Below are positions 2,832 through 59,531 of a stretch of 64,000 nucleotides of DNA, piece after piece. The position numbers and the translations under genes were made by a program. How positions within the stretch are numbered: the first letter of the stretch is position 1; every line of letters starts with the position of its first letter. Source of the DNA: Minisyncoccia bacterium (GTDB lineage: Bacteria > Patescibacteriota > Minisyncoccia > Phycocordibacterales > Phycocordibacteraceae); contig JBBRPE010000001.1 in the NCBI GenBank assembly GCA_038228545.1, forward strand, positions 110,924 through 174,923, given 5' to 3'. Under the pieces are notes generated by a model. The model did no database searches. It saw only the letters and a program-made list of their open reading frames with translations, and was not told where the DNA came from.

Positions 2832-3458
2832 ATGCCCACCGAGGACCCAAAGTCTCGCGCAGAGCTCAATAAGCTCGCACGGATGCTCGATCGTCCGGGC
2901 TTCATACCACAGACGAAAGACCCATTCCTGTTCAGCTTCATTGTACGAACTGCCCTGGCAAACGGCGTGAGTCCGCAAGACATCGTGGCCCACGCGAATA
3001 CACGCATCGACGTCGCGATACTGCGAGCCGTTGCGCAAGGTGATGACGTCATGATTCTGCCGCTACTCTGTGTTGATATCGTCCGCAACGGCATCCGGCC
3101 GCTACTGACGGAGAGCGGAGACTCGGTAAAACGTCTCGCTGACAAAGAAGTCGAACTTCTCCGCTGGACGTTCCGCGACTATCTGGCCAAGGAAATCAGT
3201 TTCGTCAACGAAGTCGAGACTGATCACGGCTTCGTCCAGCTTGTGAACACCGCAGTGGAGGGTTGTAGGCTTGATCCTTGGCAACTCGCCGAGAAATCCC
3301 CTGCACGAGCAACTGTCCGTGGAGGCTTCACGTCCGGCCAAGATATCGGAGGCTGGTCGCGAGGCGAAGGCCCGCTTCTCCCCAAGAAATACCGGGTTCA
3401 GTTCTTTACGGAAGCGGTTCTTCCGGTTCTCGAGAAAGTGCTCAACATCACGGACTAA
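2832..3458 (+). CDS. Hypothetical protein (about 208 aa) immediately downstream of rnr
   Basis: ORF track 2766..3458; internal ATG at 2832 preceded by strong SD (GAAGGAGAACAT-ATG); no recognisable motif. Confidence 0.5.
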   Translation: MPTEDPKSRAELNKLARMLDRPGFIPQTKDPFLFSFIVRTALANGVSPQDIVAHANTRIDVAILRAVAQGDDVMILPLLCVDIVRNGIRPLLTESGDSVKRLADKEVELLRWTFRDYLAKEISFVNEVETDHGFVQLVNTAVEGCRLDPWQLAEKSPARATVRGGFTSGQDIGGWSRGEGPLLPKKYRVQFFTEAVLPVLEKVLNITD

Positions 3459-3509: not shown

Positions 3510-4718
3510 GGCCTCGAGTATGCGGGTTACGGCAAGCGCATACGCAGCTTCGCGAAGCGTGATGTTTCGTTCTGCGGCGAAGTCCGCGACGTCGCGATAC
3601 GCATCTTCCATAGTGGTCTTTAGACGCTCTTCCACTTCTGCCCGCGTCCACGTTTCCCCTGACTTGTTTTGAAGCCATTCGAAATACGAAACGGTTACGC
3701 CACCGGCGTTCGCAAGCACATCAGGAATGACGATAATACCGTTCTCTGTGAGCGCCGCATCAGCTATAGGTGTCACCGGACCGTTCGCTATTTCAAGCAC
3801 GACGCCTGCCTGTACGCGCCCAACATTGTCGTCGCGTATCTGTTCCTCGAGTGCTGCAGGGATGATGATATCGGCCGGAATGGTGAAAATGGAATCGGCA
3901 GGAAGCTTCTCGCCTTCTGCTTCGTGTACGGAACCTTTTTCTTCTTTCACAGAAAGCACATGCTCAACATCAAGACCCTTCGGATTTGCGATTGTGCCGT
4001 GCGAATCCGCAATGGCAACAACGCGAGCGCCGCTTTGTGCAAGCAGGCGTGCTGCCTGTGCACCAGCATTCCCTGCTCCCTGAACACTTGCAGTGAGATT
4101 CTCGAGCGAACGATGCTGATCGCGCAGAAGTGCATCAAGTACTATGACTGCGCCGTCTGCTGTCGCTGTGTCGCGGCCTTCGCTTCCACCCTTATCAAGT
4201 GGCTTCCCCGTAATGAATGCGGGCGACGGCTTCCCGGTGATTTTTTCATATTCGTCGAGCATGACCGCCATGATTTCAGGAGTCGTGTACACATCAGGTG
4301 CAGGCACGTCTACGTCTGGTCCGAGGTGGTCGGCAAATGCTCGCACAAAAGCACGTGCCACTTCATGTATTTCATTCTTTGAATGCGTGCGTGGGTCAAA
4401 CGCAACACCGCCCTTCGCGCCACCGAATGGAATGTCTACAACGGCACACTTAATAGCCATCATCGCGGCAAGCGCCGAGACCTCGTCTTCGTCTGCGTCC
4501 GGATGGAAACGAATACCACCCTTGTAGGGTCCACGAGCATTATTAAACTGCACGCGATACGCAGGATACGTAGCGGTGCTTCCGTCGTCGCGCGTAATAG
4601 TCAGGTCTGCCTTGAGCACGCGGTCAGGTGTTTCAAGACGCGCACGGTCTTCTTCTGAAAGCCCGAGGAGCTCTGCTGCTCGGTCCATATTCTGCTTGAA
4701 GTATTCAAATGCGGCCAT
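3507..4718 (-). CDS. gdhA: Glutamate dehydrogenase (Glu/Leu/Phe/Val dehydrogenase family)
   Basis: 403 aa; GGIRFHPDADEDEV...VDIPFGGAKGG motifs and NAD(P) Rossmann GAGNAG. Confidence 0.9.
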   Translation of the reverse strand: MAAFEYFKQNMDRAAELLGLSEEDRARLETPDRVLKADLTITRDDGSTATYPAYRVQFNNARGPYKGGIRFHPDADEDEVSALAAMMAIKCAVVDIPFGGAKGGVAFDPRTHSKNEIHEVARAFVRAFADHLGPDVDVPAPDVYTTPEIMAVMLDEYEKITGKPSPAFITGKPLDKGGSEGRDTATADGAVIVLDALLRDQHRSLENLTASVQGAGNAGAQAARLLAQSGARVVAIADSHGTIANPKGLDVEHVLSVKEEKGSVHEAEGEKLPADSIFTIPADIIIPAALEEQIRDDNVGRVQAGVVLEIANGPVTPIADAALTENGIIVIPDVLANAGGVTVSYFEWLQNKSGETWTRAEVEERLKTTMEDAYRDVADFAAERNITLREAAYALAVTRILEA

Positions 4719-4980
4719 ATTCTTCTCTGGTGACTGCTATCAGAGAATCTTACGCCTCTCCAGGAATCGGTCTATGGGGATAGCTTCGCTCGGGGTAGTA
4801 AGAATCTCCGCAACTTCGACACTCACGTGTCGCACTTCACATAGTCCCCTCGTAGCGAAAACTCCCTAAAGCACTTCGTTAGTCGGGAGTTTTCTCCTCG
4901 GCTCATTGTGAAGTTGCTCTGCGTTCGGAATAGCGGATATTCTTTACTACCCATCGCTACGCGAGAAACGGAAGGAGTTT

Positions 4981-50932: not shown

Positions 50933-51078
50933 GTCTGGGGTACGAGGAACGCTTTTAGTGGCACATCGTTAATGATGTGTACGATAATGAGTGTCGCAAA
51001 GCCACCAACAAGCGTTATGGCAAGGACGCCAAGATATGAATTAATCGCTAGATTTCGTGTTCGTAGATTTGTTTTCAT
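50908..51078 (-). CDS. Candidate 56-aa small membrane protein translationally coupled to transketolase C-subunit (ATGA overlap)
   Basis: Hand translation MKTNLRTRNLAINSYLGVLAITLVGGFATLIIVHIINDVPLKAFLVPQTYAIDSIL; below the 60-aa ORF-track cutoff. Confidence 0.3.
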   Translation of the reverse strand: MKTNLRTRNLAINSYLGVLAITLVGGFATLIIVHIINDVPLKAFLVPQTYAIDSIL

Positions 51079-52058
51079 GAAATAAAAGTACGCACAGCAT
51101 CTGTAATGTGAGTAGAACCGAGACCATAGTGCTCGATGAGTTCATCCGGCTCTCCGGATTGCCCAAACACATCCTGTATACCCATTCGTACAACTGGCAC
51201 GGGGTATTTTTCGGATAGCATCTCGGCAACGGCACTTCCCATACCTCCAGCTGCCTGATGCTCTTCAATAGTTATCACACGGCCAGTTTTCCTTGCAGCC
51301 GCGATAATAGTGTCGCTATCGAGCGGTTTAATCGTATGTAGGTTAATAACTATGGTGCCGATACCGTCACTTTCGAGTGCGCGGGCAGCAAGGAGTGCGT
51401 TGTAGCAAAGTGAGCCGGTAGCAATCAAGGTGACCTTCGCCTTATCGCTTTCCCAAAGTGTAATTGCCTTCCCTATTTCAAACGGTGTCTCCGGGGTCGT
51501 AAACACCGGTGTTGCCGCCCTCCCGAACCTAATATAAGTAGGGTCGGCAGTCTTCGCTGCCGCAACAATTGCCTTCCTTCCCTCCTCGGCATCAGCCGGA
51601 TTAATAACAACCATATTCGGCAGCATGCGCATAAGTCCTATATCTTCGAGCATTTGGTGCGTCGCTCCATCGGGGCCCACCGACACGCCTGCATGCATAC
51701 CTCCTATCTTCACCGGTGTTTCGTTAAGAGCGATGGTTGTGCGTATCTGTTCGTAATTACGTCCTGGACTAAACGCTGCGTAACTCGCAATGAACGGTAT
51801 CTTCCCGACAGCTGCCATACCCGCTGCTGTTGCGGCCATGTTCTGCTCAGCAACACCCATCTCGATAAAGCGGTCTGGAAATTCTTTCTGGAACCACTCC
51901 GCACGTGTACTTTCAGCGAGGTCGGCACACAGTACAACCACGTTCCCGTTCGCCTTTCCGGCTTCAACCGTACCAAGTCCGAAGCCATCACGTGTCGGCT
52001 TCTTCTCGATGTCTTTATCGAAAAGATTCTCCTTCAGTTTTGTGTCGGGTTTAATCAT
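51075..52058 (-). CDS. tkt: Transketolase, C-terminal subunit (pyrimidine-binding and C-terminal domains)
   Basis: ...FIEMGVAEQNMAATAAGMA...; 4-nt overlap with N-terminal subunit gene. Confidence 0.9.
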   Translation of the reverse strand: MIKPDTKLKENLFDKDIEKKPTRDGFGLGTVEAGKANGNVVVLCADLAESTRAEWFQKEFPDRFIEMGVAEQNMAATAAGMAAVGKIPFIASYAAFSPGRNYEQIRTTIALNETPVKIGGMHAGVSVGPDGATHQMLEDIGLMRMLPNMVVINPADAEEGRKAIVAAAKTADPTYIRFGRAATPVFTTPETPFEIGKAITLWESDKAKVTLIATGSLCYNALLAARALESDGIGTIVINLHTIKPLDSDTIIAAARKTGRVITIEEHQAAGGMGSAVAEMLSEKYPVPVVRMGIQDVFGQSGEPDELIEHYGLGSTHITDAVRTFIS

Positions 52059-52912
52059 GAATATTCGTGTGGAACTTTGCCGGCCATGGTGCGGATTTCT
52101 TTGAGGAACTTCTTTGCCTCTTCCTTGTTTGGTGCCTTTCCATGCCAGTGGTAGTCAAACTCGATATCAGGTACGCCCTTTCCTGGGATAGTGTGTGCAA
52201 TGATGACGGTCGGTTTTTCGTATATGGCTTTTGCCTCATCAACGGCTTCGATGAACTGACGAATGTTGTGTCCATCTACTTCAAGGACATGCCAGTTGAA
52301 GGCTTCATACTTCGCCTTGAGCGAATCAAGAGGCATGATGTCTTCCGTCATTCCGTCTATCTGGATATTATTGCGGTCTATGATGGCCGTGAGGTTCGAG
52401 AGCTTGTTCTTACCAATCCACATAACCGCCTCCCAGATTATTCCCTCGTCCTGCTCGCCATCACCCATGACGACATACGTGTGATTTTTCTTACCATCCA
52501 TACGAAGTGCGTACGCAATTCCGCCTGCCTGCGGAAGGCCCTCGCCAAGAGGTCCTGAGGTGGTTTCAAGTCCCGGAAGTTTGAGACGCTCCGGGTGACC
52601 TTGAAGCCGGGTACCAAATTTGCGAAGCGTGAGACATTCCTCTACCGGGAAATAGCCTGCGTGTGCCATTGCGGAGTAACGTACCGGCACAATGTGTCCA
52701 TTACTAAGTATCAAACGGTCGCGTTCTTCCCAGTCAGGTTTCTTTGGGTCGTGCTTGAGTACATGAAAGTAGAGTGCAGCGAATATATCTGCCATACCAA
52801 GCGGACCAGCGGTGTGACCGCTTCCGGCCGCAACCAACATGTTGATTATGGTCTCGCGAATATTTTCCGCCTTCTCTTCTATATTTTGAACTTGCTCATC
52901 CGTCAGCGACAT
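52055..52912 (-). CDS. tkt: Transketolase, N-terminal (TPP-binding) subunit
   Basis: GSGHTAGPLGMADIFAALY...GDGEQDEG; split-gene arrangement. Confidence 0.9.
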   Translation of the reverse strand: MSLTDEQVQNIEEKAENIRETIINMLVAAGSGHTAGPLGMADIFAALYFHVLKHDPKKPDWEERDRLILSNGHIVPVRYSAMAHAGYFPVEECLTLRKFGTRLQGHPERLKLPGLETTSGPLGEGLPQAGGIAYALRMDGKKNHTYVVMGDGEQDEGIIWEAVMWIGKNKLSNLTAIIDRNNIQIDGMTEDIMPLDSLKAKYEAFNWHVLEVDGHNIRQFIEAVDEAKAIYEKPTVIIAHTIPGKGVPDIEFDYHWHGKAPNKEEAKKFLKEIRTMAGKVPHEYS

Positions 52913-52967
52913 ATTTTTAGAATATCACGCGTCCGGGTACAGAAACGGAATGAGGGCGTATGAAGGT

Positions 52968-53690
52968 CTACTCGTATAGACCGTGAGTGTCAGTTAATTC
53001 TGCGAACTCTGCAAACGCCGCCTTAATATCGTTCGAGCGCCAGATGCCGGAACCGACGACAAGGCGAGAGACGCCAGCGTTCAGGAGGAGACGTGCTGAC
53101 TCTAGATTCACTCCCCCGTCTACCTGTATCGGCATATCAGGATGCTTACTTCTGAATATTGCAATTTTGTTCAAGACTTCCGTTGCAAAGGGTTGTCCCT
53201 GCTTACCAATATTCTGTATTCCCATGAACTGCACGTAATCAATGTCACCGAGATACGGCTCGAGCAATTCTGAATTGGTATTAATGTTAATGGCGAGACC
53301 AAAAGAGAGTGATTCGGTTGCAAAACCCTTCTCATGTCCATATTTAACTTTTAAGTCCGTAATGAGACGCGGCATATACGTTGTTGATTCGAGGTGAGCC
53401 AGTATGCGTGTCGCTCCGGCAGCAATCCAGGTTCCAGTGATTTGCTCGGGGTCGCGTACCATTAAATCGACTTCTACATGCAAATTATCAATCTGTGGAA
53501 GCGTTCCTCCATTCGCAGACATGCGTGCAAATTCATCAGTGCCATTCGAGTATGGCCAAGAAGCTGGTTCAGCAAATACACCATCGACAATATCAACTTG
53601 CACGTCAGTCGCTATGCCTACTAAGCGAGCAAGCTTCTCGTCCAAATCAAGCTTTGATGTTGGAAGTATGGCAGGAACGATTATACCCAT
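52968..53690 (-). CDS. rpe: Ribulose-phosphate 3-epimerase-like (TIM barrel)
   Basis: IVPAILP...DIVDGVFA...VDLMV.DP...QFMGIQNIGKQGQPF...IQVDGGVN. Confidence 0.7.
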   Translation of the reverse strand: MGIIVPAILPTSKLDLDEKLARLVGIATDVQVDIVDGVFAEPASWPYSNGTDEFARMSANGGTLPQIDNLHVEVDLMVRDPEQITGTWIAAGATRILAHLESTTYMPRLITDLKVKYGHEKGFATESLSFGLAININTNSELLEPYLGDIDYVQFMGIQNIGKQGQPFATEVLNKIAIFRSKHPDMPIQVDGGVNLESARLLLNAGVSRLVVGSGIWRSNDIKAAFAEFAELTDTHGLYE

Positions 53691-53745
53691 ACGCTAAGTA
53701 TAGTGGGGCGGTTGTAGTGCTGATTCACGTAGGTGGATAAGCCCG

Positions 53746-53790
53746 ACCTAGAATTTTGAAAGTCCGCGCATGTGACGTGACGAAGGTGCT
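53746..53790 (-). pseudogene. Remnant of a duplicated rpiB 3' end downstream of pilin gene 1
   Basis: Minus-strand reading ...SSRHMRGLSKF* mirrors rpiB C-terminus ...SPRHMRRLSKF*; ~80% nt identity over ~45 nt with 54358-54400. Confidence 0.5.
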
Positions 53791-53810
53791 CGGTGAAATA
53801 ACAGACCTGA

Positions 53811-54329
53811 CTAGGGATTCGCCCAACATCCTACTTCGCTCCAGGTCGTTCCGTCTGAAATACTGGTTCGCCCGCTACTGCCATAGCAAAGATAGCGCGC
53901 ACTACCAGCCTTCGCGCTTTCATAGGGAAGATATGCCAGGATAGTAAATTTGTCCGGACTGTCAGGATAGGTGTTAACAAAAAAGAGGCAGTACGTCCCA
54001 CAGGTTGTGCCACTCGATTGGAGGAGTTGATTACACACAGCAGAGGCTGACCCGGCATAATTACCGCCAAAGGAAATATAGCTACAGTGACTACTCTGTC
54101 CTATCCACCCAGTGTCTCCATTTTTTATTGCGGTATAACTTCCTGTTTCGCTGTATTCACTATTCATAATGAGGCGAAATTGCTGTGCCTCTTCTCGCAC
54201 CGCAGTATCAGCAGCGCGCAATCGTGCCATATGTAAATTCGCAAGTACCACTGAGGAAAGAAGTCCTATGATAGCGATAACAACGAGAAGTTCGATGAGG
54301 GTGAACCCGCGTGGTACTTCTCTTTTCAT
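53811..54329 (-). CDS. Type IV pilin / pseudopilin-like protein (prepilin N-terminal methylation motif)
   Basis: MKREVPRGFTLIELLVVIAIIGLL..., C-terminal Cys pair; start at ATG 54329 (ORF-track extension overlaps rpiB). Confidence 0.8.
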   Translation of the reverse strand: MKREVPRGFTLIELLVVIAIIGLLSSVVLANLHMARLRAADTAVREEAQQFRLIMNSEYSETGSYTAIKNGDTGWIGQSSHCSYISFGGNYAGSASAVCNQLLQSSGTTCGTYCLFFVNTYPDSPDKFTILAYLPYESAKAGSARYLCYGSSGRTSISDGTTWSEVGCWANP

Positions 54330-54357
54330 ATTTTTAGGGCTGTAGAGGGGTTTTAAA

Positions 54358-54840
54358 CTAAAACTTAGAAAGTCTGCGCATGTGTCGCGGTGACGCCGCA
54401 TCAAACGCGGTACTGAGGAAAATACGCACGGCTTCGTCTGCATCATCAGGTGAGACAAACCGAGCACCGATAGAGAGCACGTTCGCATTATTGTGCTTAC
54501 GAGAAAGTCGTATGACATCAAATCCATCTTCGGAATGTCCTCCTTCGACATCAAGAGCGTCGAGTGCCGGCTCTTTACCGTAAAAAACCGCCGCACGAAT
54601 GGCCGGAACTCGGTTCGCGCACATTGCCTCGCCCTGCCCGCTTCCGGCAACGATAATACCGAAGGCATCCTCCGATGCGATTTTGTGAGCAAAGGGCGTT
54701 ACGTAATCCGGATAATCGTCTTCGGGATCAAGCGTAGCTGGGCCAAGGTCTTCCACTTCATAGCCAAGTACTTGTAGATGGTCAAACAATGCAGTTTTAA
54801 GTCTGAAGCCAGCATGGTCGCCCGTAAGATATATTTTCAT
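54358..54840 (-). CDS. rpiB: Ribose-5-phosphate isomerase B (RpiB/LacAB family)
   Basis: MKIYLTGDHAGF...GIIVAGSGQGEAMCANR; start at ATG 54840. Confidence 0.85.
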   Translation of the reverse strand: MKIYLTGDHAGFRLKTALFDHLQVLGYEVEDLGPATLDPEDDYPDYVTPFAHKIASEDAFGIIVAGSGQGEAMCANRVPAIRAAVFYGKEPALDALDVEGGHSEDGFDVIRLSRKHNNANVLSIGARFVSPDDADEAVRIFLSTAFDAASPRHMRRLSKF

Positions 54841-54883
54841 ATTTTGAGTATCAGCCACACCAGATGTAGTTCAGGTGAAGTAA

Positions 54884-55393
54884 TTATGGATTTGAATAAC
54901 AGCCCGGGTCAGTCCATCCAGCACTGTTGCTATCAGTAATGCTATATTTTCCGCCACTTCCGTAACATAGCCAACGCGCGCTACCCGCCAAGGCGCTGGC
55001 ATACGGCAGATATGCCATGATGGTGAACTTATCAGGCGAGTCAGGATTCGTTGCGGCAAACCAGACACAGTTTCCACCACATGTAGCACCAGCAGCTTTC
55101 ACGAGTGCAGTACAAATACTCGCAGCTTGCGTAGCGTAGTTTCCTCCGAAGCCGCTGCAACTCTGGCCGGCAGTGAGCCATGATCCGCCAGCACCCGATT
55201 TAATCACAGCGTACGAGCCCACATCCGAGTACTGCAATTGCATGATATTTCTGAACTGTTCGGCTTCAGAGCGGACGGTAGCGTCTGCCGCCTTCGCACG
55301 CGTAGTGTTCAGGCTTGCAAGGGCAACGGATGCAATAACACCGATAATAGCGATAACGACGAGAAGTTCGATAAGGGTAAACCCGCGTTGCAT
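54884..55393 (-). CDS. Type IV pilin / pseudopilin-like protein, paralog of 53811..54329
   Basis: MQRGFTLIELLVVIAIIGVIASVALA...; shares PDSPDKFTI(M/L)AYLPY..A.AGSAR(W/Y)LCYGSGG with paralog. Confidence 0.85.
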   Translation of the reverse strand: MQRGFTLIELLVVIAIIGVIASVALASLNTTRAKAADATVRSEAEQFRNIMQLQYSDVGSYAVIKSGAGGSWLTAGQSCSGFGGNYATQAASICTALVKAAGATCGGNCVWFAATNPDSPDKFTIMAYLPYASALAGSARWLCYGSGGKYSITDSNSAGWTDPGCYSNP

Positions 55394-55396
55394 ACC

Positions 55397-55663
55397 CTAG
55401 TTTGTTGGTCTATTCATAGTCTGGAATTGCTGTTGCTGAAATCGTGTCGGTCCAACTGGTTTGCGAGAATTTATAACCATCGCCGTAGCAATGGCAGCGA
55501 ACGAGAAAATGATAACCACAAGCAGGACATAGTTTGCCTGAAACGGACTTTTTACCGCTTTCACACGAATAAGCCACTCAATGAGACTTTCCTCCTTGGC
55601 ACGGACGAACGTCCGTCGCACCGGGACTTCTTCTTCTTCAAATTCGACTCCGTTTACTTCCAT
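55397..55663 (-). CDS. Hypothetical small single-pass membrane protein (88 aa) immediately upstream of pilin 2
   Basis: Acidic N-terminus, TM YVLLVVIIFSFAAIATAMVI; 3-nt gap to pilin start, 5-nt gap after gap gene. Confidence 0.45.
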   Translation of the reverse strand: MEVNGVEFEEEEVPVRRTFVRAKEESLIEWLIRVKAVKSPFQANYVLLVVIIFSFAAIATAMVINSRKPVGPTRFQQQQFQTMNRPTN

Positions 55664-55668
55664 AGGGT

Positions 55669-56682
55669 TTAGAGGTTACCAGCCTTTATGACGTGTTCGA
55701 CTAAGGTGTGGGTGTACCCTGCTTCGTTGTCATACCACGCGAGTACTTTCACCAGATTGCCATCAACAACGCGCGTCATACCAAGGTCAGCGATAGATGC
55801 GAAGCGCTCGCCGATAATGTCACTCGACACAAGTTCCTCATCCGTCGTCTTGAAGATTCCAGCCCAGCGCGCATCCGTCCCTGCCGTGCGCAGAATGTCG
55901 TTCACTTCGTCCACAGTTGTTGGTCGCTTCGCAATAAACGTAATGTCTGCAATGGAGCCTGCGGGCACCGGCACTCGAAGACTGATGCCGTCAAACTTTC
56001 CAGCAAGAGCCGGATACGCCTTCGTGACCGCAATCGCGGCACCGGTCGACGTGGGTACAATATTCTGTGCCGCTGCCCTTCCTTCTTTCATATCCTTTTT
56101 GGACGGTCCGTCGACAATGGACTGACTCGCTGTGTACGCGTGCGTAGTGGAGAGAATAGCTTTCTCAATACCGAGAGCTTCATCAAGTATCGCAATGACA
56201 GGACTCGCGGAGTTCGTTGTGCACGATGCATTACTCGTAATCGGGCATGTGCCGAGTTTGCTCTCGTCGAGCCCCATGAGCACGGTCGCGCCGAGTGGGT
56301 TCTCTTCCTTTACTGGGCCCGTGATGACGACATGACGTGCGCCGGCAGTAACGTGCGCATGTGCCTTTTCGTAGTCCGTAAAGAATCCCGTTGCTTCAAC
56401 CACAACATCAATGGCAAGGTCTTTCCATGGGAGAAGTAGAGGGTCCTTTTCAGAAAGAAAAGTTACGGGCTTTCCGTTAATCACCAGCTTTCCGTCCACT
56501 GCTTCAACAGGAAATGGGGCATGGCCGTAGACCGTGTCGTGTGAGAGCAAATAAGCAAAGTCCTCAAGCGAACCGAGGTCATTTATGGCTACAAGTTCCA
56601 CTTCCGGCCTATCAAACGTTTGACGCACGAACGCTCGTCCTATCCTTCCAAATCCATTAATGGCGACACGTACTGGTTTCAT
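55669..56682 (-). CDS. gap: Glyceraldehyde-3-phosphate dehydrogenase
   Basis: MKPVRVAINGFGRIGR..., catalytic ASCTTNS, 337 aa. Confidence 0.95.
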   Translation of the reverse strand: MKPVRVAINGFGRIGRAFVRQTFDRPEVELVAINDLGSLEDFAYLLSHDTVYGHAPFPVEAVDGKLVINGKPVTFLSEKDPLLLPWKDLAIDVVVEATGFFTDYEKAHAHVTAGARHVVITGPVKEENPLGATVLMGLDESKLGTCPITSNASCTTNSASPVIAILDEALGIEKAILSTTHAYTASQSIVDGPSKKDMKEGRAAAQNIVPTSTGAAIAVTKAYPALAGKFDGISLRVPVPAGSIADITFIAKRPTTVDEVNDILRTAGTDARWAGIFKTTDEELVSSDIIGERFASIADLGMTRVVDGNLVKVLAWYDNEAGYTHTLVEHVIKAGNL

Positions 56683-57359: not shown

Positions 57360-59531
57360 TTACTGCTGTCTGAGAATCAGGCGACCACTCACGAGTTTGA
57401 GCCGGAATCCTTCAAAGAGGCGCATATTGCGGGAGGTTGAACCTCCACCCGAGGAACTTTCTGCTCCTATGGTGTAGAAGGTCGATGGCGAGCTGTAATT
57501 GTTGTATTCGGTTGCTATGTAATCAGACGAGCGAGCACTACTCGAAATACGTATTTCATCAAGACCTCCACTATAGGCACTCGAGTTACCGGCGTTCGTT
57601 ACTTCTGAATTACCAAATGAGTAATACGCGAGCGGTCCGGGTGTAGGAGATTGTTTCGTGACGGTACTTGGAGAACTGGCGACCCCGTTCATGAAACCGA
57701 TAAGCTGTGTACCAGACACGTTGTAACGCATCACTACTTGGTACCAGCCACTAGCGTACACAATACCTGAGCCGGCCGTCACACACGAAAGTGACCCTAT
57801 CCAAATGCATGCCTTCACGGTGTTGTTCGTCTCGACTTCTATCTGGTTATCATGCCAGCCTCCGCCTGGAGCGACCTGACCGAGCTCGTCGAACACGCCG
57901 CCGCCGGCCGAGTTCGGCTTTATCCATGCTTCGAGCGTTATGCTCGATGGTTCAGTGAATCCGGGCGTTTCGAGATACTGTGTGGTTCCATTCATGCTCG
58001 CTCCGCCGCCAAAAAGGCCGGTAATCGCAGTAACACTGTTGTTGTTACTCGCGGCGTTTCCATTGGTCGTTGAGTCGTTGGTCGTGAGCGACGAACCGTT
58101 TGGAAGGTGGTACACCGCCACGTAGTTACTATCCCAGACATCCGTCGGATTTGATGGGTCAAAGGTAATCGAGCTGTTGCCGTAGCACATATAAAAAACG
58201 GAGTCAGTGGTAGCCGAGACTGTCGGTACTTTCACCCAGTAATTTACGACTCCTGTGGAGGCTGAGTACGATTCCACCTCCCAGGACATGAGACCCGTAC
58301 AGTTGCTACTCGTATAAAAATTAATATCGTAGCCGGAACTACTCTGCGCCTTACCTCCATTACCCGTAGAGCGAAGATCGGCAATACCGCCAGAGCCGTT
58401 ATACGTCCCGCTAACGAGCACCGGAAAATTCGTCTGGTCGGTGTTTGGAACTTTGGTGTGATCTATCGTGATAGCTCGCGAGTAGTTATAGGTACCGCTT
58501 ACGGTAAGTGGTGTATAAGTTATGATAATAAGTCCCTGTCCCCCAACACCGCCTGCAGGGAATGCTGACGTACCTCCACCACCACCACCACCACCACCAC
58601 CATACGTTCCTCCCGCACCACCAACGCCACCACCTGCGCCTGAGGAGCCGGACCCGCCGGCACCTCCTCCGCCTGCCCCGTGTGTAGCGTCCCATTCCTT
58701 ACCGGCACCACCGGCACCACCTGCTCCCGTACTCACGGCGCTTCCTCCTCCTCCTCCACCACCTGCGCCACCCGCTCCCGTACCCGCAGTACCTGCGTTT
58801 CCTGCCGCTCCCCCAGATGCACCTCCCGTACCACCGGTCGTACCATCTGAACCGGAACCCCCGGTACCTCCTACGCCAGCACTCGGCGAAGCTCCTGCAG
58901 TAGATGAACCTCCGTCCGCGCCTCCACCACCACCACCACCGCCACCAGCAACGGCATCACCGCCGTTCTTACCAGCTCCGCTTGGTCCTGCTGCACCACC
59001 GCCACCCATACTCGCTCGAAAGTTTCCTACACCGTTACCGCCACCAGCTCCCCCACTGAATTTTGTCGTACCAACACCAGATCCTGATGCACCGCCAGTG
59101 GCACCTGTTATTGGCGTTGTCGCTGGATTAGGCGCCACACCACCAGAACCTCCTTTTGCTCCGACGGAAGAAGCACCCAGACTTGCACCATTGAAGTACG
59201 TATCGCCGCCAGCAGTACCTACGGCCCCTGCCGCACCAACGCTATAGGTAACCGTGCCGGAAAGAGAAAGATTACTTACTTTGGAATAAGCACCACCACC
59301 ACCACCGCCTGTTCCCGCTCCATTAATTGTCGTAGCGCCACCGCCACCGATTACCTCAACCGAATTCGAGGAACTGTTCCAGTTTCCTGGCACCGTCCAA
59401 CTTGATCCTGCCGTGAGATAAATGGTTGTTACTGCCGCATGAGCAACCGGAAGTGGCGAAACGGAAAATACGAGAGCAATGATGAGCACCAGGCTCATCA
59501 TTCGTACTCCGGTAGATAGATAGCGACTCAT
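57360..59531 (-). CDS. Secreted Gly-rich surface protein with DUF2341-like and concanavalin-A/LamG-like domains
   Basis: Signal peptide; ~280-aa GGxGG low-complexity; ...RAITIDHTKVPNTDQTNFPVLVS...FYMCYGN (DUF2341-like); ...VAVYHL...TLEAWIKPNS... (LamG-like). Confidence 0.65.
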   Translation of the reverse strand: MSRYLSTGVRMMSLVLIIALVFSVSPLPVAHAAVTTIYLTAGSSWTVPGNWNSSSNSVEVIGGGGATTINGAGTGGGGGGAYSKVSNLSLSGTVTYSVGAAGAVGTAGGDTYFNGASLGASSVGAKGGSGGVAPNPATTPITGATGGASGSGVGTTKFSGGAGGGNGVGNFRASMGGGGAAGPSGAGKNGGDAVAGGGGGGGGGADGGSSTAGASPSAGVGGTGGSGSDGTTGGTGGASGGAAGNAGTAGTGAGGAGGGGGGGSAVSTGAGGAGGAGKEWDATHGAGGGGAGGSGSSGAGGGVGGAGGTYGGGGGGGGGGTSAFPAGGVGGQGLIIITYTPLTVSGTYNYSRAITIDHTKVPNTDQTNFPVLVSGTYNGSGGIADLRSTGNGGKAQSSSGYDINFYTSSNCTGLMSWEVESYSASTGVVNYWVKVPTVSATTDSVFYMCYGNSSITFDPSNPTDVWDSNYVAVYHLPNGSSLTTNDSTTNGNAASNNNSVTAITGLFGGGASMNGTTQYLETPGFTEPSSITLEAWIKPNSAGGGVFDELGQVAPGGGWHDNQIEVETNNTVKACIWIGSLSCVTAGSGIVYASGWYQVVMRYNVSGTQLIGFMNGVASSPSTVTKQSPTPGPLAYYSFGNSEVTNAGNSSAYSGGLDEIRISSSARSSDYIATEYNNYSSPSTFYTIGAESSSGGGSTSRNMRLFEGFRLKLVSGRLILRQQ

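Follow-up and report, generated by a model that had tools for sequence, protein, structure and literature searches.

We found two intact type IV prepilin genes around an intact rpiB, followed by the 3′ end of another rpiB, within the glycolysis/pentose-phosphate gene cluster of a Minisyncoccia bacterium. The cluster lies in a stretch of 64,000 nucleotides (nt) of contig JBBRPE010000001.1, which is termed the window here and in which all coordinates are positions; labels of the form L003 denote the related loci and genomes that were compared, and coordinates that follow such a label belong to that locus. On the minus strand the genes run gap, a gene for an 88-amino-acid (aa) membrane protein, pilin 1, rpiB, pilin 2, the rpiB stub, rpe and tkt (Table 1), which is the order that an earlier note had read from this DNA, with the addition that tkt is split. 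Unit 1 (membrane protein, pilin 1, spacer and rpiB) is intact, and what remains of unit 2 is pilin 2, which appears to be selectively maintained, with a short relic behind it. This arrangement indicates that a second pilin-rpiB unit existed and that about 463 nt have since gone from it. A recent copy of the first unit is most likely not what the second was, and we tentatively favor, at a probability slightly short of even, that it was imported as pilin-rpiB from a fairly close relative and that its redundant rpiB was then deleted. The locus is a dated snapshot of how a reduced genome gained a second pilin very unlike the first.

A truncated second rpiB behind pilin 2

The resident rpiB codes for a full-length PF02502 domain, scores 113.6 bits against TIGR00689 (cutoff 88.3), matches the database call P0001 at 100% and has the same ATG start as P0001 and its homologs. 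It is 63–79% identical to the rpiB of the syntenic loci, and its C-terminal RHxRRLxKF motif is conserved in 36 homologs. The tail of this gene recurs in the 120-nt non-coding stretch between pilin 2 and rpe: a repeat search pairs 53748–53777 with 54358–54387 at 83% identity, and local alignment of the pilin 2-rpe spacer with rpiB yields a score of 36, which 0/2000 shuffles reach (17.0 ± 2.2, maximum 29). The C-terminal remnant that the earlier note had spotted and put at about 45 nt therefore stands up to a check of significance and measures 36 nt, in frame. Stub and gene both end exactly on TAG and, aligned without gaps, share 28/36 nt, reading SSRHMRGLSKF* and SPRHMRRLSKF*, respectively.

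The differences between the two are distributed as in a coding sequence, with agreement at 22/24 of the first and second codon positions and 6/12 of the third (Fisher p = 0.009). This implies that most of the divergence accrued while the stub was still coding, that its source rpiB would have been functional until shortly before the deletion, and that the deletion is probably recent relative to the split of the rpiB copies. The stub retains the RH.R.L.KF pattern of the tail, but Arg162, otherwise invariant, is Gly in it, which fits a loss of function. Two further residues, at variable positions of the tail, are rare among 119 rpiB homologs (Met in 3, Ser in 9), and their combination in the stub is found elsewhere just in the resident rpiB, which points to this lineage or a near relative as the source of the stub. 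The stub derives from an rpiB gene and is a non-functional fragment, since 11 codons are left of it. A structured RNA or known RNA family in this region was considered and rejected, as there is no Rfam match and the fold is no more stable than those of shuffles (z = +0.97).

The TAG of pilin 2 is in frame with the next 20 codons (53748–53813), which end in the rpiB-derived SSRHMRGLSKF*. We regard this in-frame link as probably a coincidence; translation past the pilin 2 TAG into the stub (read-through) is unsupported, the downstream frame in L003 being unrelated.

The 27 nt from the pilin 2 stop codon to the stub resemble the spacer that this pilin family has ahead of rpiB. When anchored at the stop codon, 10/15 nt match the L003 spacer, and there follows a YTTCAY hexamer (here TTTCAC) that is common to the spacers of pilin 1, L003 and L081. 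We treat this putative spacer relic as supportive rather than proven evidence. The repeat spacings (1076 and 610 nt) and the stop-to-stop distances (526 and 63 nt) give the net loss of about 463 nt, and the deletion junction lies inside 53784–53792; the stub and the spacer relic together let the rearrangement be reconstructed to within 9 nt. A single internal deletion would have begun just past the -35-like box of the promoter and removed the -10 box together with the start codon and everything in rpiB except its final 36 nt, and would have left the relic and the 11 codons joined to the native rpiB-rpe spacer. On the other side of pilin 2, the 28-nt spacer behind rpiB has no significant similarity to the rpiB-rpe spacer (p about 0.5), for which reason we rejected the idea that it is a shortened copy of the latter that would lengthen the repeat.

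An independent Logan assembly (L090, from SRR19962015) is 100% identical to window positions 54258–55218, which confirms the pilin 1-rpiB-pilin 2 junction and shows that it is not peculiar to one assembly. The L090 contig ends 72 nt into pilin 2, where the 5′ pilin segment in common with pilin 1 (54241–54312) finishes, and its other end lies within pilin 1, about 100 nt short of the repeat segment 55317–55388. The break in pilin 2 fits an assembly-graph break at a repeat; the opposite end does not.

Two divergent pilins

Both pilins have a short basic leader that ends in Gly, Phe at +1, Glu at +5 and a hydrophobic segment thereafter, as expected of type IV prepilins: MQRG precedes FTLIELLVVIAIIG in pilin 1 and MKREVPRG precedes FTLIELLVVIAIIG in pilin 2, with the GFTLIE motif in either case. 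Both match PF07963, in agreement with the earlier identification of two prepilin genes around rpiB; their matches to TIGR02532 are above its cutoff, and in the whole 64-kb window just these two open reading frames (ORFs) carry the prepilin motif. In its AlphaFold2 model (mean predicted local distance difference test score, pLDDT, 93.3), pilin 1 is predicted to have the lollipop shape of a long N-terminal helix (52 residues, 7–58) followed by a compact globular head. A Foldseek search of the PDB with the head (model m8f4fb47d3e14) returned no significant structural match, the top one being the gonococcal pilin 1ay2 (E = 0.16, template modeling score 0.36–0.38). Cys79, Cys94, Cys143 and Cys165 are invariant among 61 pilin homologs.

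Pilin 1 and pilin 2 are collinear end to end with 59% aa identity; their first 72 nt are 81% identical, and their third codon positions are saturated (identity 0.33). Pilin 2 is also called as a gene at NCBI, as P0253, a look-up of which has no contig on record. A 293-aa ORF with a TTG start (53811–54692) was rejected as spurious: it runs in another frame over rpiB, and homologs as well as the database call use the ATG at 54329.

The earlier note had proposed a phylogeny of the two pilins as a check on its duplication. In a neighbor-joining tree of 34 family members (167 columns, 200 bootstraps) the two are sisters in 0/200 bootstraps, so that each of the duplicated genes has its closest relative elsewhere. 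The partner of pilin 1 in the tree is the L081 pilin (70% bootstrap), its nearest relative at 70% identity, inside a clade of pilins from about a dozen further genomes. That of pilin 2, at 100%, is the pilin of L003, which is the sole pilin of that genome and the sole close relative of pilin 2.

Several features of the pilin 2-L003 pair bear on how these genes move. The two pilins are 87–90% identical in aa, depending on the alignment, and 81% in nt, and their identity by codon position (0.91/0.93/0.55), with nonsynonymous divergence (dN) far below synonymous divergence (dS), indicates that pilin 2 is probably under purifying selection. The flanking genes of the two loci are 85% (gap), 71% (rpiB) and 71% (rpe) identical in aa, and at third positions the pilins have an identity of 0.55, compared with 0.41 for gap, 0.30 for rpiB and 0.32 for rpe. 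The similarity of L003 to pilin 2 is confined almost exactly to the pilin ORF (L003 4458–4964). The G+C fraction at third positions (GC3) of the L003 pilin is 0.49 (4441–4959), against 0.60–0.67 in its neighbors; that of pilin 2 is 0.43, with neighbors at 0.44–0.45, and in L081, L084 and L017 the pilin also matches its neighbors. These patterns point to the L003 pilin as a likely allelic replacement by lateral transfer, and, as its GC3 is foreign and that of pilin 2 native-like, the pilin-2 type moved into the L003 lineage and not out of it. L003 was accordingly rejected as the donor of unit 2, its rpiB tail also matching the stub at only 22/36; its long rpiB-rpe spacer contains no stub. The pair shows that pilin alleles of this family move laterally between lineages at a fixed chromosomal address, and does not thereby identify the origin of unit 2.

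Origin of the second unit

The earlier note had explained the locus by tandem duplication of a pilin-rpiB segment and near-complete deletion of the second rpiB. Much of its anatomy holds, there being two collinear direct units of which the second has a reduced rpiB; simple, recent copying in place is the part that fails to fit, because the pilins are not simple in-place paralogs. Given that they are non-sister and saturated, the second unit may have been imported instead. A pilin "allele" of a divergent type would have entered, together with the rpiB next to it, from a fairly close relative by DNA uptake and recombination beside the resident rpiB, and the redundant rpiB would have been removed soon afterwards. 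We favor import because the non-sister pilins, the coding-type divergence of the stub, the shared Met and Ser, the matching composition and the precedents of transfer (the L003 pilin and an insert with low GC3 in L010) all fit it, and a source rpiB that stayed functional until its deletion is easy to account for in an imported copy and hard in a duplicate kept for long in a streamlined genome. A number of points weigh on the other side. No donor lineage for unit 2 was found. A search of 5.8 billion proteins turned up pilin-2-type genes just in this genome and in L003, and metagenome contigs scanned for exact 21-mers and for a protein pattern yielded no more. Long-branch effects on pilin 2 are possible in a neighbor-joining tree of this length. 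The rpiB tail is conserved across the clade, so that the source of the stub is not assignable by nucleotide identity (28/36 for the resident gene and for L022, 27/36 for L034 and L029). The spacer relic, when not anchored at the stop codon, resembles its counterparts weakly, with p = 0.16 for the L003 spacer and p = 0.03 for that of pilin 1, and the left junction, in the 28-nt spacer, is uninformative.

A probability well below even, though still substantial, goes to an ancient tandem duplication of pilin-rpiB in place, after which the pilins diverged and the second rpiB was recently deleted. Both rpiB copies would then have been functional or homogenized by gene conversion, the pilins would have been under diversifying selection, and the pilin-2 type would have been exported to L003. 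Collinearity of the units and the restriction of the rare Met-Ser pair to the stub and the resident rpiB are as such a duplication predicts, the native GC3 of pilin 2 beside the foreign GC3 of the L003 pilin would reflect transfer out of a window-like lineage, and TAGGGTATG at the start of pilin 1 and TAGCGTATG at the start of rpe offer an 8/9 microhomology for unequal exchange. It is the pilin tree that it accommodates poorly, with no bootstrap support for sisterhood and with pilin 1 nested among the pilins of about a dozen genomes. With synonymous sites saturated, the duplication must also predate the splits from the single-unit relatives and have been lost in all of them, and the coding-type divergence of the stub requires that two functional rpiB genes were kept for long in a reduced genome. 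We consider it improbable that pilin 2 entered the rpiB|rpe junction with a short 3′ fragment of rpiB and that a full second rpiB was never present here, whether through a truncated imported linear fragment joined illegitimately or through a small circle that integrated by one crossover in the 3′ end of rpiB. Pilin 2 does lie between direct repeats of that 3′ end, an insertion followed by a core-gene stub is also seen for rpiB in L010 and L032 and for gap in L054 and L059, and coding-type divergence is expected if the fragment came from a donor's functional gene; however, the spacer relic with its -35-like box implies that pilin, spacer and rpiB once stood together in a precursor and that an internal deletion occurred at some point, the 610-nt insert has no visible integrase, transposase or terminal repeats, and a 36-nt anchor of 78% identity is a poor substrate for homologous recombination. 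That the 36-nt similarity is due to chance, or to a conserved regulatory or RNA element, is extremely improbable: it is indeed short, and the rpiB tail is so conserved in the clade that many tails match it at 70–78%, but no shuffle reaches its score, it is in frame with codon-position asymmetry and ends on a stop codon, and neither Rfam nor the folding analysis marks it as an RNA. The stub also lies beyond the conserved TATACT region, 58–95 nt ahead of where rpe starts, and most other loci with an occupied rpiB|rpe slot are without such a stub.

Pilins and core-gene stubs in related clusters

By its closest database matches the organism belongs among Paceibacteria/Kaiserbacteria-like Patescibacteria, and the backbone gap-rpiB-rpe-tktN-tktC is conserved across the clade, with the window gap 84–87% identical in aa to those of L001, L003, L081 and L084. 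Comparison with relatives, as suggested in the earlier note, uncovers a single unit (gap, membrane protein, pilin, rpiB, rpe) in L003, L081/82 and L084/85. The nearest relatives by rpiB, the closest at 78% identity, have no pilin at the site (L001, L004 and L089) or other cargo (L086–L088): an 810-aa beta-helix protein in the rpe|tktN slot (L086 5384–7816), a 118-aa 23S_rRNA_IVP/bAvd-like protein in the gap|rpiB slot (L087 3598–3954) and a 327-aa protein of the Beta-lactamase2 family in the same slot (L088 3010–3993).

Pilins amid central metabolism, which the earlier note had called unusual, turn out to be a clade-wide habit and not an oddity of this genome. Prepilin genes occupy at least one slot in 14/51 rpiB-selected loci with a close gap gene, and the slots vary: across all 59 loci fetched the counts are 10 for rpiB|rpe, 7 for gap|rpiB, 4 for rpe|tktN and 4 for tktN|tktC. 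In whichever slot the pilin sits, its 5′ side is often adjoined by a single-pass membrane protein of 65–95 aa; homologs of the window protein immediately precede the pilin in L003, L081, L084, L010, L032 and L006 (Table 1). They begin with M..V.FEEE, continue into a QANYVLL-type transmembrane helix, often contain KPVGPT and have no match in Pfam or NCBIfam. As the pilin is so often preceded by this protein, the mobile unit is a two-gene module of membrane protein and pilin, and the former may act as an accessory protein of the latter.

Stubs of the upstream core gene follow inserted genes at four other loci. In L010, where the order is gap-rpiB-(membrane protein-pilin)-rpiB stub-rpe, with no pilin unit upstream of rpiB, a 22-nt rpiB stub (3384–3405) is 20/22 identical to the gene and ends at the stop codon (z = 6.9); L032 (3226–3259) has a decayed version of it, and gap stubs are seen in L054 (1797–1864, z = 9.8) and L059 (2624–2673, z = 23.6). 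Their recurrence suggests a recurrent mode of insertion. We further raise, as a conjecture that we consider unlikely, that this backbone in Paceibacteria repeatedly serves as the landing pad of pilin modules exchanged between lineages; these would arrive along with part of the adjacent core gene, leave core-gene 3′ stubs as scars and ride the short leaderless-type promoters of the core genes. Were this so, the attachment-pilus repertoire of these episymbionts would diversify by "allele capture" at a housekeeping cluster, and the window would present one capture shortly after the deletion of the redundant rpiB. Should the pattern of 14/51 clusters and four further stubs hold, the cluster would be a preferred site of insertion and expression for surface-variation genes. 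A full-text literature search returned studies of pilin clusters and pili in Patescibacteria (PMC9763046, PMC11623550), and nothing on pilins inside a gap/pentose-phosphate cluster or on scars of this kind.

Predicted transcription of the cluster

The genes from gap to tkt all lie on one strand with gaps of 3–120 nt and no terminator-like sites above chance, and the earlier note had taken them for an operon in which the pilins are constitutively co-expressed with central metabolism. Conserved boxes at fixed distances before rpe and rpiB suggest internal promoters of a leaderless type, so that the cluster is probably not one constitutive operon and, with a further box before tktN, is more plausibly made up of several short transcription units. 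The pilin 1-rpiB spacer has CTTCAC (54875–54880) and GATACT (54847–54852), the latter 6 nt ahead of the rpiB ATG. YTTCAY stands at -39/-40 of the rpiB ATG in the window, L002, L003, L008 and L081/82 (GTTCAT in L001), and a NATACT-type box at about -13 in the window, L001, L002, L003 and L081/82; the spacing of about 20 nt between them is unusually long for a sigma-70 promoter. In the window TATACT precedes the rpe ATG by 6 nt, and in most relatives with a 20–200-nt rpiB-rpe spacer by 6–9 nt (L002, L003, L004, L011, L020, L021, L041, L081 and L086 among them); it looks like a conserved -10 element of a leaderless or near-leaderless rpe transcript. Two points count against these predicted promoters: a generic scan for sigma-70 promoters and terminators gave nothing above chance, and the assignments are motif-based, with function deduced from the motifs. 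Pilin 1, with gaps of 5 nt between gap and the membrane protein and 3 nt between the latter and the pilin, appears tightly coupled to both genes. Pilin 2, which lacks a promoter-like box and follows rpiB by 28 nt, is probably expressed from the rpiB promoter.

Several rpiB-rpe spacers (e.g., those of L002, L086 and L027) hold palindromes and a CTATCCCC motif, and TGATATTCT is found 6 nt before the tktN ATG (about 52919–52927 in the window).

Relation to known systems

In Patescibacteria, type IV pili are believed to serve in attachment to the host and in uptake of DNA (PMC9763046, PMC11623550). The closest parallel to the locus is the "pilin island" of Pseudomonas aeruginosa, where five pilin groups with group-specific accessory genes occupy one conserved locus (PMC11841053). 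As in those cassettes, highly divergent pilin alleles are found at the same position between conserved genes, a small partner gene travels along, and there is apparent exchange between lineages, as with L003. Unlike them, the partner here is a small upstream membrane protein and not a downstream glycosyltransferase or TfpY-like protein, and the setting is a glycolysis/pentose-phosphate cluster of a Patescibacterium with two alleles in tandem.

Tandem segmental duplication with subsequent pseudogenization or deletion of the redundant copy is a general pattern of genome evolution. The adjacent, direct and collinear units, of which one has a member cut to a 3′ stub, resemble it; pilins that are not each other's closest relatives set the locus apart from a simple recent duplication in place. 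Homology-facilitated illegitimate recombination during natural transformation has been described in naturally competent bacteria (PMC3240628). It would place a foreign segment beside a homologous anchor and leave truncated pieces of core genes at the illegitimate end, as in the stubs here and in L010, L054 and L059, and we consider it a plausible route of import; the present case differs from those described in that no donor was found and competence is presumed from the pilins only.

In Neisseria, the pilS loci are silent pilin cassettes used for antigenic variation. The locus is similar in having more than one pilin sequence, with a conserved 5′ segment and variable regions, but unlike pilS, pilin 2 is full-length, with an ATG start, a leader and the full N-terminal helix, and under purifying selection. 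A silent cassette of the pilS type was rejected on this account, the gene being complete rather than a promoterless, 5′-truncated piece and its dN far below dS. The locus is a case of modest evolutionary footprint, a new example of known processes and not a new mechanism.

Features of the locus

Table 1. Coordinates of the genes, spacers and remnants of the cluster
Feature	Position	Strand	Evidence or remark
gap (glyceraldehyde-3-phosphate dehydrogenase)	55669-56682	-	PF00044/PF02800; the conserved backbone begins with it
88-aa single-pass membrane protein	55397-55663	-	no Pfam/NCBIfam family
Pilin 1 (type IV prepilin)	54884-55393	-	PF07963 E 9e-9; TIGR02532
Pilin 1-rpiB spacer with promoter-like CTTCAC and GATACT	54841-54883	-	motif comparison
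Intact rpiB (160 aa)	54358-54840	-	PF02502 E 8e-36
3′ end of intact rpiB (SPRHMRRLSKF*), the left one of the direct repeats around pilin 2	54358-54393	-	
rpiB-pilin 2 spacer (28 nt), unit 1/unit 2 junction	54330-54357	-	without promoter-like box
Pilin 2 (intact type IV prepilin)	53811-54329	-	PF07963 E 6e-8
Putative pilin-rpiB spacer relic with -35-like TTTCAC (53793-53798)	53784-53810	-	comparison with L003, pilin 1 and L081 spacers
rpiB 3′ stub, last 11 codons and stop (SSRHMRGLSKF*)	53748-53783	-	36 nt, in frame
Native rpiB-rpe spacer with TATACT (53697-53702)	53691-53747	-	box conserved in relatives
rpe (ribulose-phosphate 3-epimerase)	52968-53690	-	PF00834
Split transketolase, tktN and tktC	tktN 52055-52912; tktC 51075-52058	-	4-nt overlap; PF00456; PF02779/PF02780
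Homologs of the membrane protein	L003 4176-4442; L081 4735-4995; L084 4720-5004; L010 2520-2780; L032 2427-2693; L006 5562-5759		

Two genes upstream of gap, a 723-aa ORF on the minus strand (57360–59531) has very long Gly-rich tracts of low complexity and a C-terminal half rich in Asn, Ser and Thr; the Pro-rich ORF on the opposite strand is spurious.

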